A DNA stretch of 5,878 nt from a virus. Its lineage: Duplodnaviria; Heunggongvirae; Uroviricota; Caudoviricetes. The notes below the pieces were generated by a model. The model did no database searches. It was not told where the DNA came from and saw nothing but the letters and a program-made list of their open reading frames with translations. The translations under genes and the position numbers were made by a program. Shown here piece after piece: positions 1 through 5,878 of this stretch; position 1 is the stretch's first letter; every line of letters begins with the position of its first letter. The DNA lies in the IMG/VR virus record IMGVR_UViG_2531839473_000007; one strand, written 5' to 3'.

Positions 1-43
1 CGGAGCAGACGCTCACGCTGTGCGATGATGTGCGGGCCTGCCG

Positions 44-1930
44 GTGTACGGGGAGATACCGTTTAACCCGAACACCCGTGAGGTGACGACGGCGTGCATC
101 AGCCTGTTCCGCTACCAGGCGCAGGTGCGGCCCTCGCAGGTGCGTTCAAAAGACCACACGTTTAAGGTGCCGGACTGGCCGGGTATTTACATTGAGGATG
201 CTGAAAACCTCAACGGGCAACTGAAGCAGTACAAAATCCTGGACTGGCCGGGGCGCTACAAGGACGAGCAGCATGGTCAGGACTTTACCCGCTACCGGCT
301 GGAAGGGCTGCGTAACAGTGCTGAAACCGCCACAGGTATCAGTAACTCCCCGGCGCTGTGGCCGGGACGGCGGTTCACCCTGACGGGGCATCCGGTACAG
401 GGAGCGAACCCGAACCGTGAGTGGCAGGTGGTGAGCAGCACGCTGACGGGGAGCCAGCCGCAGGCGCTGCACGGCAGTCACGGTGAAGGAACGACGCTGA
501 GTAACCAGTTTGAGGTGATACCGGCAGACAGGACGTGGCGTCACGCGCCGCTGCCGAAGCCGAAGGTGGACGGCCCGCAGAGTGCCATCGTGACCGGGCC
601 GAAGGGCGAGGAGATATTCTGCGACGAACATGGCCGGGTACGGGTGAAGTTTCACTGGGACCGTTATCACGGTATGACGGAGGAGAGTTCATGCTGGATA
701 CGGGTGTCGCAGGCGTGGGCGGGAGCGGGGTTCGGTAATCTGGCGATACCGCGTGTGGGTCAGGAAGTGATAGTGGACTTTCTGAACGGGGACCCGGACC
801 AGCCCATCGTCACGGGACGCACCTACCATGAGGACAACCGTTCACCGGGGGATTTACCGGGCACGAAGACGCAGATGACGATACGGTCGAAGACCTATAA
901 AGGAAGCGGATTTAACGAGCTGCGGTTTGAAGACGCCACGGGCGGTGAGCAGGTGTATATCCATGTGCAGAAGAACATGGACACGGAGGTGCTTCACGAC
1001 CGGACGACGGACGTGAAGCATGACCACACGGAGACCATCGGGAACAACCAGAAAATCACGGTGGGGCTGGGCCAGACGGTGACGGTGGGGAAAGAGAATG
1101 CCGGAGGGCATGACCAGACCATCACGGTGGCCCATGACCGGAGCATCACGGTGCGCAACGACCAGACGCTGAAGGTGACGAACGACCGGCGGGTGAACGT
1201 CAGCCACGATGACGGTCTGTACGTCAGAAACGACCGAAAGGTGACGGTGGAAGGGAAGCAGGAGCACAAAACGACAGGAAACCACATCAGCCTGGTGGAG
1301 GGAAAACACAGCCTGGAGGTGAAAGGCGACCTGGCGAGGAAGATTACCGGCGCGCTGGGAATGAAGGTCCGGGATGAAATCGTACTGGAGAGCGGCGGTA
1401 AAATCACCCTGAAGGTGGGCGGCTCGTTCGTTGTCGTTCATTCTGGTGGCGTGGATATTGCCGGGCCGAAGATAAACCTGAACGGCGGGGGCAGTGCGGG
1501 GACACCGGTGGGGACGATGCAGCCGGGTGTACTGGCGGCGCTGGCGGATGACGGGGGTGATGAAGAAGGCGAAGATGACGGGCAGGGCAATGGCGACTCC
1601 GGTGATGGAGAGGGGGGGGCCGGAGATGATGATAGTGGAAACGATTCGGACAATTCAGATGATGATGAAAAGGAAATTGTTTCTATTAGTTGGTCCTATG
1701 GTAACAATCGGACAAAAGTTCAGGATACATCCAGACACTATGTAGACCTCAATCTCCATGTGCAGACAAAAGGGTATAGTCCTGGGGAAAGTGTGTCCGT
1801 CGAAATAAAATATGATGACTTTGATGGTATGGAAAGATCTCTTGCTGTTAGCGGCACGGTAGATGAATCAGGTGAGATGGTTGTTGAGCAGGTTTTATCT
1901 GGGGCAGACGTCTGTACTTTAGATGAGTAG
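44..1930 (+). CDS. vgrG: T6SS spike protein VgrG (vgrG1), 3' portion with C-terminal extension. The open frame starts at GTG 44 after a TGA at 26-28, but the vgrG reading continues upstream in another frame (apparent 1-bp deletion near nt 30-32), so this is a frameshifted gene or a sequencing error.
   Basis: Translation carries VgrG core motifs (FKVPDWPGIYIEDAENLNGQ, YKDEQHGQDFTRYRLEGLRNSAETATG, FHWDRYHG, gp5-like beta-helix repeats such as VKHDHTETIGNNQKITVGLGQTVTVG). It aligns residue-by-residue with the vgrG2 N-terminal region at 5509-5878. Stop TAG at 1928-1930. Confidence 0.9.
   Translation: MYGEIPFNPNTREVTTACISLFRYQAQVRPSQVRSKDHTFKVPDWPGIYIEDAENLNGQLKQYKILDWPGRYKDEQHGQDFTRYRLEGLRNSAETATGISNSPALWPGRRFTLTGHPVQGANPNREWQVVSSTLTGSQPQALHGSHGEGTTLSNQFEVIPADRTWRHAPLPKPKVDGPQSAIVTGPKGEEIFCDEHGRVRVKFHWDRYHGMTEESSCWIRVSQAWAGAGFGNLAIPRVGQEVIVDFLNGDPDQPIVTGRTYHEDNRSPGDLPGTKTQMTIRSKTYKGSGFNELRFEDATGGEQVYIHVQKNMDTEVLHDRTTDVKHDHTETIGNNQKITVGLGQTVTVGKENAGGHDQTITVAHDRSITVRNDQTLKVTNDRRVNVSHDDGLYVRNDRKVTVEGKQEHKTTGNHISLVEGKHSLEVKGDLARKITGALGMKVRDEIVLESGGKITLKVGGSFVVVHSGGVDIAGPKINLNGGGSAGTPVGTMQPGVLAALADDGGDEEGEDDGQGNGDSGDGEGGAGDDDSGNDSDNSDDDEKEIVSISWSYGNNRTKVQDTSRHYVDLNLHVQTKGYSPGESVSVEIKYDDFDGMERSLAVSGTVDESGEMVVEQVLSGADVCTLDE
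1547..1675 (+). other. Acidic low-complexity linker inside vgrG1 (D/E/G/S/N-rich, about 43 codons) between the VgrG core and the C-terminal domain; contains a G8 homopolymer.
   Basis: Translation ADDGGDEEGEDDGQGNGDSGDGEGGAGDDDSGNDSDNSDDDEK. Nucleotide composition switches from GC-rich to AT-rich within this segment. Confidence 0.8.
1612..1619 (+). repeat. G8 homopolymeric tract inside the vgrG1 coding sequence (codons GAG GGG GGG GCC).
   Basis: Eight consecutive G read directly at 1612-1619. Confidence 0.9.
1676..1927 (+). other. VgrG1 C-terminal extension domain of unknown function (about 84 aa, AT-rich); candidate cargo or adaptor-binding module.
   Basis: Translation KEIVSISWSYGNNRTKVQDTSRHYVDLNLHVQTKGYSPGESVSVEIKYDDFDGMERSLAVSGTVDESGEMVVEQVLSGADVCTLDE follows the gp5-like repeats and acidic linker. 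Its composition matches the downstream AT-rich cassette, not the vgrG core. Confidence 0.5.
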
Positions 1931-2095: not shown

Positions 2096-2236
2096 ATGGC
2101 AAAAAAAGTTACAGCTAGTGCGGGAAAACAAAAATCGACTGTTAATGTAAAAAGACCTGCATGGTCTGATGTATATGAAGGATATCCAAAAGTTAATGGA
2201 GGTACTGAAATTGAGAGTGATTTGCCTATGAAATAA
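2096..2236 (+). other. N-terminal segment (46 codons) of the tae4-like effector gene, ending at an in-frame TAA (2234-2236) and continuing in the same frame as ORF 2237-2662.
   Basis: ATG at 2096 with Shine-Dalgarno TAAGGG at 2084-2089 (6-nt spacer). Translation MAKKVTASAGKQKSTVNVKRPAWSDVYEGYPKVNGGTEIESDLPMK. Same frame as the downstream catalytic ORF, separated only by TAA. Confidence 0.5.
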
Positions 2237-2662
2237 TTGTTTACATCAATTTTTGGGCCTGATTATGATACTACGCAATTCAATAATGGTTGTGCTACAA
2301 GAGTATCTCTTGGATTACTTTCTGAAGGATTAAAAAGAGTGGGGGAAAGAGATATTGTTATTAGTGAAAAATCTCATATCCATTATGGGAAATCAATAGA
2401 GCCCGGAGCTGCAAGATTAAAAGATTTTCTGATAAAAATATGGGGAAATGCAGATTATGTCATTAAATATCCTCTAAGCTTTGACGATGTAAGCTCGGTA
2501 TTAAATGATAAAAAAGGTGTTTATATAATGGTTTATAAAAGACCTGCGGATCATGGTGGTGCTACGGGACATGCTACACTATGGACTGGTAACAGAGCCA
2601 TTGGCGGTAATGACCATGCTGATTCCAGTGCTTTTGCAATCTATTTTTGGGAATTGAAATAA
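2237..2662 (+). CDS. Tae4-like T6SS peptidoglycan amidase effector (papain-like Cys-His hydrolase), catalytic portion. Likely a pseudogene or disrupted gene, because the natural start and RBS lie upstream at 2096 beyond an in-frame TAA.
   Basis: Motifs NNGCATRVSLGL (candidate catalytic Cys) and GHATLWTGN (candidate catalytic His), followed by GGNDHAD, fit the Tae4-family pattern as recalled. Size and AT-rich composition suit an effector cassette. The only in-frame start before the Cys is TTG at 2237, with no RBS. Confidence 0.55.
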   Translation: MFTSIFGPDYDTTQFNNGCATRVSLGLLSEGLKRVGERDIVISEKSHIHYGKSIEPGAARLKDFLIKIWGNADYVIKYPLSFDDVSSVLNDKKGVYIMVYKRPADHGGATGHATLWTGNRAIGGNDHADSSAFAIYFWELK

Positions 2663-3096
2663 TGAAAGCTATATTTTTTATATTCTGTATTTTTTTTATG
2701 GGAAATTCATTGTTATATTCAGAGGCTAAAGCCAGTGAATCAGAAAGTACTCTGGATGATTATAAAATATTTACACTCGCTAAATGCATTACCAGTAATT
2801 ATGAAAAAATGGGGGTTGATTTTACAAAACTACCATTGAAAGATAACACTATGGGATTTATTGATATTGATGCTGGACTCGCTTTTTATCGAAATAAGGA
2901 TAGTGTTTTAGCATCTTTCATTAATAAAAAAACAGGGGGTTTTTACAGGCCAAAACAAACTAGTGGTGATTTAGCATCTTCAAATATGGTTATATACGAC
3001 TGCGTAAATTTTTATCATTCAAAAGAGTTGGGTGTATTTCTAAAAAAAATCATTCATGAGAGGACTGTCGAAATTGAGAGAAACGCACTCGAATAG
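2662..3096 (+). CDS. Periplasmic immunity protein candidate (Tai4-like by synteny) with an N-terminal signal peptide.
   Basis: ATG at 2662 overlaps the upstream stop (TAATG). Signal peptide MKAIFFIFCIFFMGNSLLYSEAKA, then a hydrophilic mature protein of about 120 aa. Sits immediately downstream of the amidase effector, as in effector-immunity pairs. The ORF-track start (TTG 2647) is less plausible than ATG 2662. Confidence 0.5.
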   Translation: MKAIFFIFCIFFMGNSLLYSEAKASESESTLDDYKIFTLAKCITSNYEKMGVDFTKLPLKDNTMGFIDIDAGLAFYRNKDSVLASFINKKTGGFYRPKQTSGDLASSNMVIYDCVNFYHSKELGVFLKKIIHERTVEIERNALE

Positions 3097-3271
3097 ATAA
3101 TTCTGGCGGTGACTTTGTTTTTTTTGGATGCAATGCAATATATAAAAATTGTATTTGTTCGAAAATAATATAAAATATCCGAGAAAAATATCATTCGCTA
3201 TTAAAGTGTCTAAGCGTTTTTACATAAGTACTTTACATCGTTTAGTTTAAAAACGCGGCTATCAATAAATG

Positions 3272-3331: not shown

Positions 3332-3616
3332 ATGCCCACAGCAGCCAGACTCAGCGATAAAGGCACCCAGCATGACGGTTATTATGAGACCGCCATTATT
3401 GCAGGCTCCTCCTCCGTCTTTATTGATGGTATGCCCGCCGCCCGTCAGGGCGATCCGCTGACACCGCATTCCAAACCCGACCATCCCCCTCACCCCCGTA
3501 AAATCGCAGGCGGCTCTGCCACTGTCTTTATTGACGGTAAACCTGCCGCCAGAACCGGCGATGCCATTGACTGTGGCGGCGTGGTTATCGGTGGCGGCAC
3601 GGTAAATATAGGCTGA
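3332..3616 (+). CDS. Stand-alone PAAR-domain protein (T6SS spike-sharpening tip), 94 aa.
   Basis: Three PAAR-type motifs (TAARLSD, PAARQGD, PAARTGD) with G/I-rich beta-strand spacers. Shine-Dalgarno AAGGAAA 6 nt before ATG 3332. Stop TGA at 3614-3616. The ORF-track upstream ATG at 3269 lacks an RBS, and the PAAR domain begins at Met 3332. Confidence 0.9.
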   Translation: MPTAARLSDKGTQHDGYYETAIIAGSSSVFIDGMPAARQGDPLTPHSKPDHPPHPRKIAGGSATVFIDGKPAARTGDAIDCGGVVIGGGTVNIG

Positions 3617-3705
3617 TTAATTATCAGGGAGGCTGTATGCCCTCAGAAGGATTACGTTTCACGCTGTCGGTGGCCGGCATTGTGGAGATGGCGACGGCGG
3701 TGGTC
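3612..3705 (+). repeat. Direct repeat copy 1 (about 94 bp, about 90 percent identical to 4898-4987): TGATTAAT junction, Shine-Dalgarno GGGAGG, and the first 23 codons of vgrG.
   Basis: Alignment by eye: gctgattaat..cagggagg..atgccctcagaaggattacgtttcacgctgtcggtggccggcattgtggagatggcgacggcggtggt versus the vgrG2 5' region. Confidence 0.9.
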
Positions 3706-4398
3706 GTAGAGGACGGCATATTTGGAAAAAATACATACGACGCAGTGAAAATATTTCAGCGGTATAATGGGTTAAATGATGATGGCATCGTAGGGCCACA
3801 AACCTGGCGGAAATTGGGTGTTCCTGAACTTTTAACGCGAAGTTCATCAGGCTCTCCCGCCAGCCCTTCTTCGGGGCCATCCCGGAGCCCTTCTGCTGAT
3901 TCAAATGGTACTGTTGCTGAGACTGGTGATGGATTCTGTTTCCCATTCCCTGCACTTCCTGCGAGATCGTGGACAAACGGCGGTCGTCAATTTGGGGCGT
4001 CACGCAGTGGGGGCCGCAGACATGCCGGTTGTGATTTGATATTCCCCCGAGGAACGCTTATTTATGCTGTTGCTGATGGCATATTAGTTCAGCCCCCATA
4101 TCCATTTTACGAAGGTACTTCTGCTGTAGAAATTAGACATGGCAACCTTCTCCTTCGCTATGGTGAAATTATTAATGGGTCATACGTAGGTGGGCAAACG
4201 GTTCAAAAAGGTCAGGTTATTGCTAAGGTAGGAAGGCTGCATTCGGGTTCATCTATGTTGCATCTGGAGATTTATACGAATGCGACCTTATCGGGTGACC
4301 TTACAGATCGCAACAGAGCGCCTTATCAAAGACGTTCTGATGTGACAGATCCTGCCCCATATCTGGATATCTGGAAAAATAACCTGCCTACCCTCTGA
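3637..4398 (+). CDS. Chimeric putative T6SS effector: vgrG-derived N-terminus (23 aa), then a partial peptidoglycan-binding (PG_binding_1-like) motif, a Ser/Pro-rich linker and an M23/LytM-like peptidase domain.
   Basis: N-terminus MPSEGLRFTLSVAGIVEMATAVV matches the vgrG2 start MSSEGLRFTLSVDGIVEMATAVV. DGIFGKNTYDAVKIFQRYNGLNDDGIVGPQTWRKLG matches the second half of the PG_binding_1 consensus. M23-like blocks: HAGCD (HxxxD), GTLIYAVADGILV, VEIRHGNLLLRYGEI, GQTVQKGQVIAKVG, SMLHLEIY, VTDPAPYL. Shine-Dalgarno GGGAGG precedes ATG 3637. Confidence 0.75.
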   Translation: MPSEGLRFTLSVAGIVEMATAVVVEDGIFGKNTYDAVKIFQRYNGLNDDGIVGPQTWRKLGVPELLTRSSSGSPASPSSGPSRSPSADSNGTVAETGDGFCFPFPALPARSWTNGGRQFGASRSGGRRHAGCDLIFPRGTLIYAVADGILVQPPYPFYEGTSAVEIRHGNLLLRYGEIINGSYVGGQTVQKGQVIAKVGRLHSGSSMLHLEIYTNATLSGDLTDRNRAPYQRRSDVTDPAPYLDIWKNNLPTL

Positions 4399-4417: not shown

Positions 4418-4882
4418 ATGTTCAAAAAGATAATACTATTTTTAACGGTGATATCTTCGAGTTTTGTTGTTTGTCTTGCGGCTGATTCAGAAAAGATATT
4501 ATCAGTAGATCCTGTTGTGAATAATTTTGGCGTTGATGAAGTCGTAGGGTTGCCTCATCCTGTTTGTACTTTGAGTCTGGCTGAAAATAATGAGAAACAT
4601 CTTTATAATTATGTTGAGGGCGGTATCTGCCCTGTGGGCGGTGAAAGTTGTCCTTATTCAGCCGTCATAAAACTGAATGGCAAGATGGCGATATTAAAAC
4701 AGATATCGACAAATAAAAATATCAGTTTTTTTAAGAATGATGAGGTATCGATTATCACAACACAAAGCCCAGTTAAAGGAGCTGTGGTGGATGAAGAGGG
4801 TGGTGATGTGAATGCCGTTATTGTAATCAAAACAAAAAATAGCGAAATAAAACTTAATATGTCCGGGTACTGTGGTATTTAA
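4418..4882 (+). CDS. Putative periplasmic immunity protein for the M23-like effector (secreted, Cys-containing, no family recognised).
   Basis: Signal peptide MFKKIILFLTVISSSFVVCLA followed by ADSEK. Four Cys in the mature part (C50, C71, C78, C152). Shine-Dalgarno AAGGA 9 nt before ATG 4418. AT-rich. Immediately downstream of the effector. Confidence 0.5.
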   Translation: MFKKIILFLTVISSSFVVCLAADSEKILSVDPVVNNFGVDEVVGLPHPVCTLSLAENNEKHLYNYVEGGICPVGGESCPYSAVIKLNGKMAILKQISTNKNISFFKNDEVSIITTQSPVKGAVVDEEGGDVNAVIVIKTKNSEIKLNMSGYCGI

Positions 4883-4897
4883 AACCGGGCTATTATC

Positions 4898-4987
4898 GCT
4901 GATTAATCAAGGGAGGTCATATGTCCTCAGAAGGATTACGTTTCACGCTGTCGGTGGACGGTATTGTGGAGATGGCGACGGCAGTGG
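4898..4987 (+). repeat. Direct repeat copy 2: the authentic vgrG2 translation-initiation region and first 23 codons.
   Basis: Same alignment as copy 1; gctgattaat at 4898-4907, GGGAGG at 4911-4916, ATG at 4921. Confidence 0.9.
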
Positions 4988-5878
4988 TGAGCTTCCGTCT
5001 GTACCAGCACCACTGCACACCGTTCATCCTGGATGTGGATATCGCCAGCGGACTGTCTGACCTGACGGCGGAGGATTTTCTGGAGAAAAGCGCGGTGCTG
5101 ACGGTCTGGCAGGGCGACACTGCACAGCGTTACGTCAGCGGTATCGTGACGGAGGTGCAGCTCGGTGAGAACAACGACTGGCAGATGCGTTATTCCCTGA
5201 GCATCAGCCCGCCGCTGTGGCGGGCAGGGTTACGGCAGAACTTCCGTATCTTCCAGCAGCAGGACATCGGGACGATATCAGCACAGCTTCTTGAAGAGAA
5301 CGGGGTGACGGCGTGGATGCCGCTGTTCTATGAGGCGCACCCGGCGCGGGAGTTCTGCGTGCAGTACGGGGAGAGCGACCTGGCGTTCCTGACCCGGCTG
5401 TGGGCGGAGGAAGGTATCTTCTTTTATGAGCGCTGCAGTCAGGAAGGGCCGGAACAGAAGCTGGCGGTGTGTGATGACGTGGCGGGGCTGACGGGAATGG
5501 GGGCGCTGGCGTTTAACCCGGACACGACGACCGGGGGAACGACGGAGTACATCAGCGAGTTTCGTTACCGTGCGCAGATAAGCGTGGCGTCGGTGGAGAC
5601 GCAGGATTATACGTTCAAAACGCCGGGGTGGCCGGGGTACTACAGCCATGCCGGGGAGAGCCTGAACGGGCAGGGAACGCAGTACGAGATATTTGATTAT
5701 CCGGGGCGTTTCAAGGATGAGCAGCACGGCCAGGACTTTGCGCGTTACCAGACGGAAGGGTGGCGGAACGGGGCGGAGACGGCGAGCGGGGTGTGTAACA
5801 CGGCGCGACTGTGGCCGGGAACGCGGTTCCGGCTGACGGGCCATCCCTCAGGGACGCTGAACCGGGAATGGCAGGTTG
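4921..5878 (+). CDS. vgrG: T6SS spike protein VgrG (vgrG2), N-terminal about 319 codons; 3' end beyond the window.
   Basis: Open frame from ATG 4921 to the window end with no stop (translated by hand). Begins MSSEGLRFTLSVDGIVEMATAVVSFRLYQ and continues with VgrG core motifs (TFKTPGWPGYY, FKDEQHGQDFARYQTEGWRNGAETASG). Strong Shine-Dalgarno AAGGGAGG. Confidence 0.92.
   Translation, partial: MSSEGLRFTLSVDGIVEMATAVVSFRLYQHHCTPFILDVDIASGLSDLTAEDFLEKSAVLTVWQGDTAQRYVSGIVTEVQLGENNDWQMRYSLSISPPLWRAGLRQNFRIFQQQDIGTISAQLLEENGVTAWMPLFYEAHPAREFCVQYGESDLAFLTRLWAEEGIFFYERCSQEGPEQKLAVCDDVAGLTGMGALAFNPDTTTGGTTEYISEFRYRAQISVASVETQDYTFKTPGWPGYYSHAGESLNGQGTQYEIFDYPGRFKDEQHGQDFARYQTEGWRNGAETASGVCNTARLWPGTRFRLTGHPSGTLNREWQV

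Follow-up and report, generated by a model that had tools for sequence, protein, structure and literature searches.

The vgrG gene that lies at the left end of this stretch of DNA does not run in a single frame, and the question raised by the locus is whether the interruption reflects a genuine lesion in the bacterial strain from which it was sequenced or a flaw in the deposited sequence. The stretch analysed here, referred to as the window, was not cut out of a longer genome sequence: its 5,878 nucleotides are the whole of the 5,878-bp scaffold GL872061.1 in the draft assembly GCA_000190955.1 of Escherichia coli M863, the strain that is also named as the organism on the protein record EGB59212.1, and one that has been used as a representative of Escherichia clade I in a published comparison (PMC4182557). 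Both ends of the scaffold are enclosed by vgrG genes, the first of which (vgrG1) enters the window as its 3' part, at positions 1-1930, while the second (vgrG2) is represented by 319 codons of its 5' part, at positions 4921-5878, and runs past the scaffold end. All the features discussed below are located on the plus strand.

The missing G and the reading frames of vgrG1

The portion of vgrG1 held in the window corresponds to codons 178-820 of an intact ortholog, WP_071533189.1, and is read in frame 3 up to position 32 and in frame 2 from position 32. The move from one frame to the other occurs at codon 189 (Ala) of the 820, where a single G is absent at positions 31/32, the window reading GATGATGTG^CGGGC where every comparator has GATGATGTGGCGGGC, that is, GTG^CGG in the place of GTGGCGG. 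Frame 3, taken from position 3, encodes EQTLTLCDDV and then continues out of frame as RACRCTGRYRLTRTPVR, to end at a TGA at positions 84-86, 17 aberrant codons past the deletion; frame 2 reads an R, a stop and then CAGLPVYGEIPFNPN, and is open for 628 codons after the TGA at positions 26-28. The paralog vgrG2, at the other end of the window, carries EQKLAVCDDVAGLTGMGALAFNPD within one frame. Relative to intact orthologs, the indel produces a premature stop, as it would in a frameshift pseudogene.

The one-base deletion in vgrG1 with respect to vgrG2, which had been put forward in the original prediction, was confirmed both by these translations and by a nucleotide alignment with the completely sequenced genome of E. 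coli MFDS1022581 (NZ_CP169399.1), in which 5,878 window bases are matched to 5,879 genome bases, with one gap (GATGATGT-GCGGGC versus GATGATGTGGCGGGC) and one substitution in 5,878 nt. In MFDS1022581 the counterpart of the broken gene is an uninterrupted, 820-codon tssI/vgrG, encoding WP_071533189.1. Apart from the gap, the 30 nt that precede it and the 5,847 nt that follow it match orthologs at 99.9-100 % identity, so that the resemblance to vgrG is not a matter of chance. The short frame-3 stretch that precedes the shift, whose relationship to vgrG had at first been judged from a few codons, is thus genuinely homologous, since in orthologs the frame-3 reading extends over the whole of the gp27-like domain. 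The TGA at positions 26-28, cited in the same prediction as accompanying the loss of the G, does exist, but it is not the stop that truncates the product, since it belongs to frame 2 and precedes the junction; its effect is to block the upstream extension of the downstream frame, and the native reading ends at the TGA at 84-86.

After the shift, the reading frame stays open through all 628 codons, which do not differ from those of orthologs, and secondary decay in the form of extra stops, indels or substitutions was not found within them, an observation that would have little weight if the lesion were very recent. The annotation product of the frameshifted sequence is the GTG-start ORF at positions 44-1930, deposited as EGB59212.1 (E. 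coli M863, 628 aa), and this exact 628-aa product occurs in a single public contig, GL872061.1 itself.

A broken frame could still yield a functional spike if the deletion were decoded, either by a programmed -1 ribosomal frameshift or by transcriptional slippage that restores full-length VgrG, or if separately made halves were able to assemble, and this explanation is regarded as highly improbable. A -1 slip at GTG/G, re-reading G32 (GTG then GCG), would indeed generate the exact V188-A189 junction of the ortholog, but positions 1-60 harbor no slippery heptamer of the type X XXY YYZ, and the 98 nt at positions 33-130 fold at -42.2 kcal/mol (z = -1.59), a value that 17 out of 200 shuffled sequences equal or better. 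Transcriptional slippage needs long homopolymeric runs, and two consecutive G offer it no support; the GTG at position 44, in turn, is not preceded by a Shine-Dalgarno-like sequence that would favor the separate synthesis of a C-terminal half. In addition, the two-frame arrangement was found in none of the orthologs or paralogs compared, all of which are single-frame, and there is consequently nothing conserved to be programmed. With neither slippery heptamer nor stimulatory structure, a programmed frameshift is nearly excluded; of the attributes of known -1 sites, such as those of dnaX and of IS3-family transposases, vgrG1 shares the direction of the shift only, and the heptamer, the stimulatory structure and the conservation are all absent. 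Were the deletion real and the gene expressed, it is barely conceivable that a non-canonical -1 shift at GTG-G would lead to an 820-aa spike, or that two separately made fragments, an N-terminal one of 205 residues and a C-terminal one of 628, would form a split VgrG.

Other assemblies of the locus and the repeats at the scaffold ends

Ten further assemblies of the island, all from strains other than M863 and ranging from complete chromosomes to 6-kb contigs, were found by means of the neighbouring Tae4 protein. Over the shared stretch they are 99.90-99.98 % identical to the window, from which they differ by 0-4 substitutions, and the extra G is present in all ten, with the same single gap in each alignment. 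In every one of them vgrG is intact, being open for 819 or 820 codons. A 120-nt query that spans the site was also located in four complete E. coli genomes, six times in all, and each time 120 query bases correspond to 121 genome bases, indicating that the G is present. The alignment to vgrG orthologs suggested in the original prediction has therefore revealed an extra G in all of them, restoring a continuous frame, and no assembly compared other than the M863 draft has the deletion.

The deletion sits 31 nt from the left scaffold end, within a segment (positions 1-215) whose counterpart in NZ_CP169399.1 is exactly repeated in a distant vgrG paralog. This genome holds the 120-nt site sequence twice, the other occurrence being the 5' part of a 733-codon vgrG located approximately 4 Mb away. 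That gene and vgrG1 match without a difference from a point 292 nt before the window start up to position 215, the first mismatch occurring at 216 and the next one at 475. Judging from this related genome, M863 itself would also carry the distant paralog. The right scaffold end (positions 5341-5878) is likewise a near-exact repeat, common to the downstream vgrG2 and to the first vgrG of the island, and in most genomes position 5612 is the sole site that tells the two copies apart; in the window this position is a C, which is the base of the paralog, while seven of the eight assemblies that reach it have a T. The two differences that are private to M863 are thus both contained within the repeat-bounded ends of the scaffold, and the approximately 5.1 kb between them hold none. 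The lesion therefore lies tens of bases from a contig end, that end falls in a repeat, and independent assemblies lack the lesion, all of which are features of an assembly artefact.

These observations bear directly on the possibility that the deletion is a genuine one-base loss, private to M863, that has turned vgrG1 into a pseudogene, an explanation that is less likely than an error. The deposited sequence does contain the deletion, which breaks the frame, and the missing base belongs to a pair of G, not to the kind of long homopolymer where such errors classically occur. Nevertheless, of at least 11 assemblies only one draft has the deletion, and the others differ from it by 0-4 substitutions in 5.9 kb; at such a divergence a real private indel would be expected well below once per scaffold. 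The chance that it would fall at most 31 nt from either end is 62/5878, or about 1 %, the 628 codons downstream bear no additional lesions, and the scaffold's one remaining private difference likewise resides in a terminal repeat. It could also be envisaged that a real deletion belongs to the distant paralog, which is identical across positions 1-215; given this identity, the scaffold alone would not tell which of the two vgrG copies bears the deletion, even if it is real. M863 reads that carry GTGGCGGG on both vgrG copies would be incompatible with a deletion in either form. Of the two alternatives initially proposed for this locus, pseudogene or base-call error, the dichotomy was thus well drawn, but a preference for the pseudogene is not supported by the scaffold end, by the repeats, or by the presence of the G in all other assemblies.

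The missing G is probably an error of consensus, assembly or base calling at the end of a contig of the M863 draft, an explanation favored because every other assembly of the locus has the G, and which is drawn from the assemblies of other strains. The fact that the window is an entire short scaffold, with the site 31 nt from its end, repeats at both ends and a deletion that is absent elsewhere, shifts the weight clearly toward such an error. One can envisage a simple route by which it may have arisen: reads could be placed on the vgrG1 copy only if they were anchored in unique sequence past position 216, and such reads would thin out toward the scaffold end and would consist of read ends. The end consensus would hence rest on few read ends, and the GG of GTGGCGG could have entered it undercalled by one base, after which the annotation pipeline would have taken the longest remaining ORF, that which starts with the GTG at position 44 and encodes the 628 aa of EGB59212.1. 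The assembly GCA_000190955.1 comes from a Broad Institute project and would presumably be, like the Broad E. coli drafts of its time, a 454/Newbler assembly, which would fit a one-base undercall. Elsewhere the scaffold appears to be accurate, since at two interior T-runs (T8-T9, at positions 2690 and 3118) M863 agrees with the majority, while two other drafts are one T shorter.

Errors of this kind have precedents. In the M. smegmatis study on interrupted coding sequences, re-sequencing showed that a sizeable share of the interrupted coding sequences of deposited bacterial genomes were sequencing errors (PMC1852416). The artefactual cases described there resemble vgrG1 in that an indel of one base, absent in close relatives, breaks up a gene whose conservation is otherwise perfect and leaves the rest of the sequence intact. 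They differ in that the error in vgrG1 is deduced by comparison, and in that it affects two G in a row, inside a repeat where the contig terminates, as opposed to a long homopolymer in a contig interior.

The VgrG1 spike and the genes that surround it

The intact ortholog of vgrG1 is a VgrG/TssI protein, matching TIGR03361 with 587 bits (cutoff, 186), and Pfam profiles identify Phage_GPD at residues 31-330 (E 8e-76), Phage_base_V at 387-453 and Gp5_trimer_C at 470-543. It therefore possesses the gp27-like hub, the gp5-like OB fold and the beta-helical trimerisation region that are the domains of VgrG/TssI in the E. coli T6SS-1 island. The window, in contrast, holds the protein from residue 178 onward only, split at codon 189, and the three domains are not encoded in it within one continuous frame. 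As in other T6SS-1 islands, the intact ortholog is located downstream of tssB/C, hcp and a PAAR gene and adjoins effector-immunity pairs, and related strains also carry a neighbouring VgrG-Tla1 (DUF4123)-Tli1-Tle1 module. VipA/VipB, Hcp, PAAR, Tae4, M23 and Tle1 modules surround vgrG1 in related loci, which links the gene to the T6SS; more precisely, in related strains the island has tssB/C and hcp upstream and a DUF4123/DUF3304/Tle1 module downstream.

Beyond the spike, VgrG1 ends in an 85-aa domain (positions 1673-1927) that follows an acidic linker (protein residues 694-736). Together with the break at codon 189, this linker and C-terminus distinguish vgrG1 from other VgrG proteins, including the 733-aa alleles that precede other cargo. 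The domain is probably a cargo-specific module. Sequence searches of Pfam, NCBIfam and the PDB yielded zero matches for it, and a Foldseek search of the PDB, for which the query was a single-sequence AlphaFold model, gave nothing better than E 0.25; the model itself is all-beta and of moderate confidence (pLDDT 67). Between positions 1500 and 2100, where the conserved spike passes into the cargo module, the G+C content falls from approximately 0.58 to approximately 0.33.

The gene that follows, at positions 2096-2662, encodes an amidase effector of the Tae4 family, whose product matches PF14113 (E 2e-13) and Ssp1 (E 3e-5). It shares both motifs of the Tae4/Ssp1 amidases (PF14113; PDB 4BI3 for Ssp1 and 4HFK for Tae4), namely the Cys motif NNGCATR and the His motif GHATLW, and differs from them by an in-frame TAA at codon 47 (positions 2234-2236; E47*), a change that is lineage-wide. 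This nonsense codon is common to all 11 assemblies, and intact, 188-aa homologs exist in other Escherichia. Its stop overlaps the ATG (TAATG) of a 144-aa ORF with a hydrophobic N-terminus (positions 2662-3096), for which profile searches gave no family hit, and which is presumed to encode the cognate immunity protein of Tae4. A PAAR protein gene at positions 3332-3616 (NF033420, 160 bits; PF05488) precedes a second effector gene, at positions 3637-4398, with domain matches to PG_binding_1 and to an M23 peptidase. The first 23 codons of the latter, together with its RBS region (positions 3612-3704), are derived from the 5' end of a vgrG, and intact homologs of 260 aa exist. The open reading frame list places a 154-aa ORF, also with a hydrophobic N-terminus, at positions 4418-4882, directly before vgrG2, and this ORF would presumably encode the immunity protein for the M23 effector.

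Several changes mark the island in the related strains. The PAAR-linked vgrG1 starts with ACG instead of ATG in all eight of the related loci that have a visible 5' end (seven distinct assemblies), the N96 allele carries an internal stop, IS2 and IS21 insertions truncate neighbouring genes, and a third vgrG is truncated.

What an interrupted vgrG1 would mean

The state of the island is a consideration on the side of a genuine deletion. Inactivating changes other than the one discussed here occur in related strains, including the Tae4 E47* codon, the ACG start, the IS21 and IS2 insertions and the internal stop of the N96 allele, and since the island is visibly decaying in this lineage, an extra genuine lesion would not be a surprise. 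Furthermore, the cognate effector is already interrupted, so that selection on the spike may be relaxed. If the deletion were real, the product would consist of 188 native residues, equivalent to about half of the gp27-like domain, and 17 aberrant ones, followed by a stop; such a protein would lack the OB fold, the beta-helical spike and the C-terminal domain specific to the cargo. The deletion would then be a pseudogenising indel of an ordinary kind, private to one strain, in a cargo module with an already interrupted effector, and would have a local bearing on how vgrG islands decay step by step in Escherichia clade I, without surprising specialists.

If, on the other hand, the missing G is an error of the contig end, the real gene of M863 would be an intact, 820-aa VgrG such as that of all other island-bearing strains, seated between the PAAR gene and the Tae4/immunity pair of the T6SS-1 vgrG island. 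The frameshift in vgrG1 is most probably not biological, and EGB59212.1, with its 628 aa, is probably a truncated artefact, which should be counted neither as a vgrG pseudogene nor as a short VgrG in surveys of T6SS decay.

The Tae4 effector gene and its neighbors

The gene encoding the Tae4-family amidase effector (window 2096-2662) carries an in-frame TAA at 2234-2236 (E47*, GAA to TAA), while unbroken 188-aa homologs with 97-99 % identity are present in other Escherichia. In all ten related assemblies carrying the same T6SS island the gene is split into calls of 46 and 141 aa, and the interruption is therefore a genuine, lineage-wide nonsense mutation. The premature stop comes before both catalytic motifs (Cys and His), and use of the open reading frame that remains after it would require a TTG start.

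The VgrG1 spike protein encoded immediately upstream ends (window 1550-1930) in a highly acidic linker of approximately 43 residues, rich in Asp, Gly and Glu, followed by an 85-aa domain whose coding sequence is AT-rich, with G+C content falling from ~0.58 to ~0.33 across the region. This domain has no match in Pfam, NCBIfam or the PDB, and its AlphaFold model, of moderate quality only, is all-beta; it is probably the module that binds the Tae4 effector, either directly as cargo or through an adaptor.

Two T-runs near the putative Tae4 immunity gene vary in length in drafts of other genomes. The run at window 2683-2690, which is located at the 5' end of the immunity gene, is one base shorter in loci L004 and L007, and the shorter run yields a call of 132 aa instead of 144; the run at 3111-3118 is one base shorter in L007. 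These differences could reflect either homopolymer variation or sequencing error.

An M23 peptidase gene with a vgrG-derived start

The gene that encodes a protein with PG_binding_1 and M23 peptidase domains (window 3637-4398) has a ribosome-binding region and first 23 codons (3612-3704) that are a copy of the 5' end of a vgrG. This stretch shares 89 % nucleotide identity with window 4898-4988, a vgrG 5' end sequence (MPSEGLRFTLSVAGIVEMATAVV). The PG_binding_1 match begins only at position 22 of the 57-position profile because the vgrG-derived codons took the place of the native N-terminus, and the complete domain is kept in 260-aa M23 homologs from Pseudocitrobacter, Escherichia sp. and some E. 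coli. In Pseudocitrobacter faecalis, the gene for the 260-aa homolog lies ~750 nt 3' of a vgrG fragment. The 5' end of the window gene resembles the scar of a recombination or deletion by which a vgrG start became joined to the effector, and this chimeric allele is found on 59 contigs.

Common heads and exchangeable tails among vgrG alleles

A distant, 733-aa vgrG of E. coli MFDS1022581 (L014 4472-6673, corresponding to NZ_CP169399.1 151126-153327) is nearly identical to vgrG1 over its 5' kilobase, with no difference from window 1-215 and a single mismatch up to 474; its 3' end is unlike that of vgrG1, and it is associated with its own cargo, ORFs of 829 and 136 aa. This comparison shows that vgrG alleles are modular, with a common head and exchangeable tails, and it is because of the shared head that drafts break in the 5' region of vgrG1.

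In the short-read contigs L011 and L012 (1-5160), the vgrG1-Tae4 module is preceded not by the PAAR gene, which is absent there, but by genes of 281 and 304 aa, the same two that sit 5' of the distant paralog in MFDS1022581. This arrangement is either a true recombination through the common vgrG 5' repeat or an assembly chimera across it. At the right scaffold end, which is made up of a near-exact vgrG repeat, window position 5612 is C, the base of the island's first vgrG paralog; of the eight other assemblies that cover the position, seven have T. The difference could be a collapsed-repeat consensus or gene conversion.

The vgrG1 start codon and insertion sequences

Among strains in which the 5' end of the PAAR-linked vgrG1 is visible (the M863 start is off the scaffold), the start position, outside the window in every case, reads ACG in L005 (7232-7237), L001, L004, L006-L008, L010 and L013. 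ATG occupies this position in the close N96 allele and in the L011 and L012 contigs (protein MSLKGLRF...). RefSeq places the start at an ATC one codon 5' of the ACG, and an alternative annotation begins 16 codons 3' (804 aa). In this lineage, the spike gene may be weakly translated, even without the frameshift.

In several related strains (L005 12685-16250, and likewise L006 and L007), an IS21-family insertion cuts the counterpart of vgrG2 to 561 codons, and an IS2 lies 5' of the PAAR-vgrG1 pair. These insertions are additional evidence for erosion of the island.
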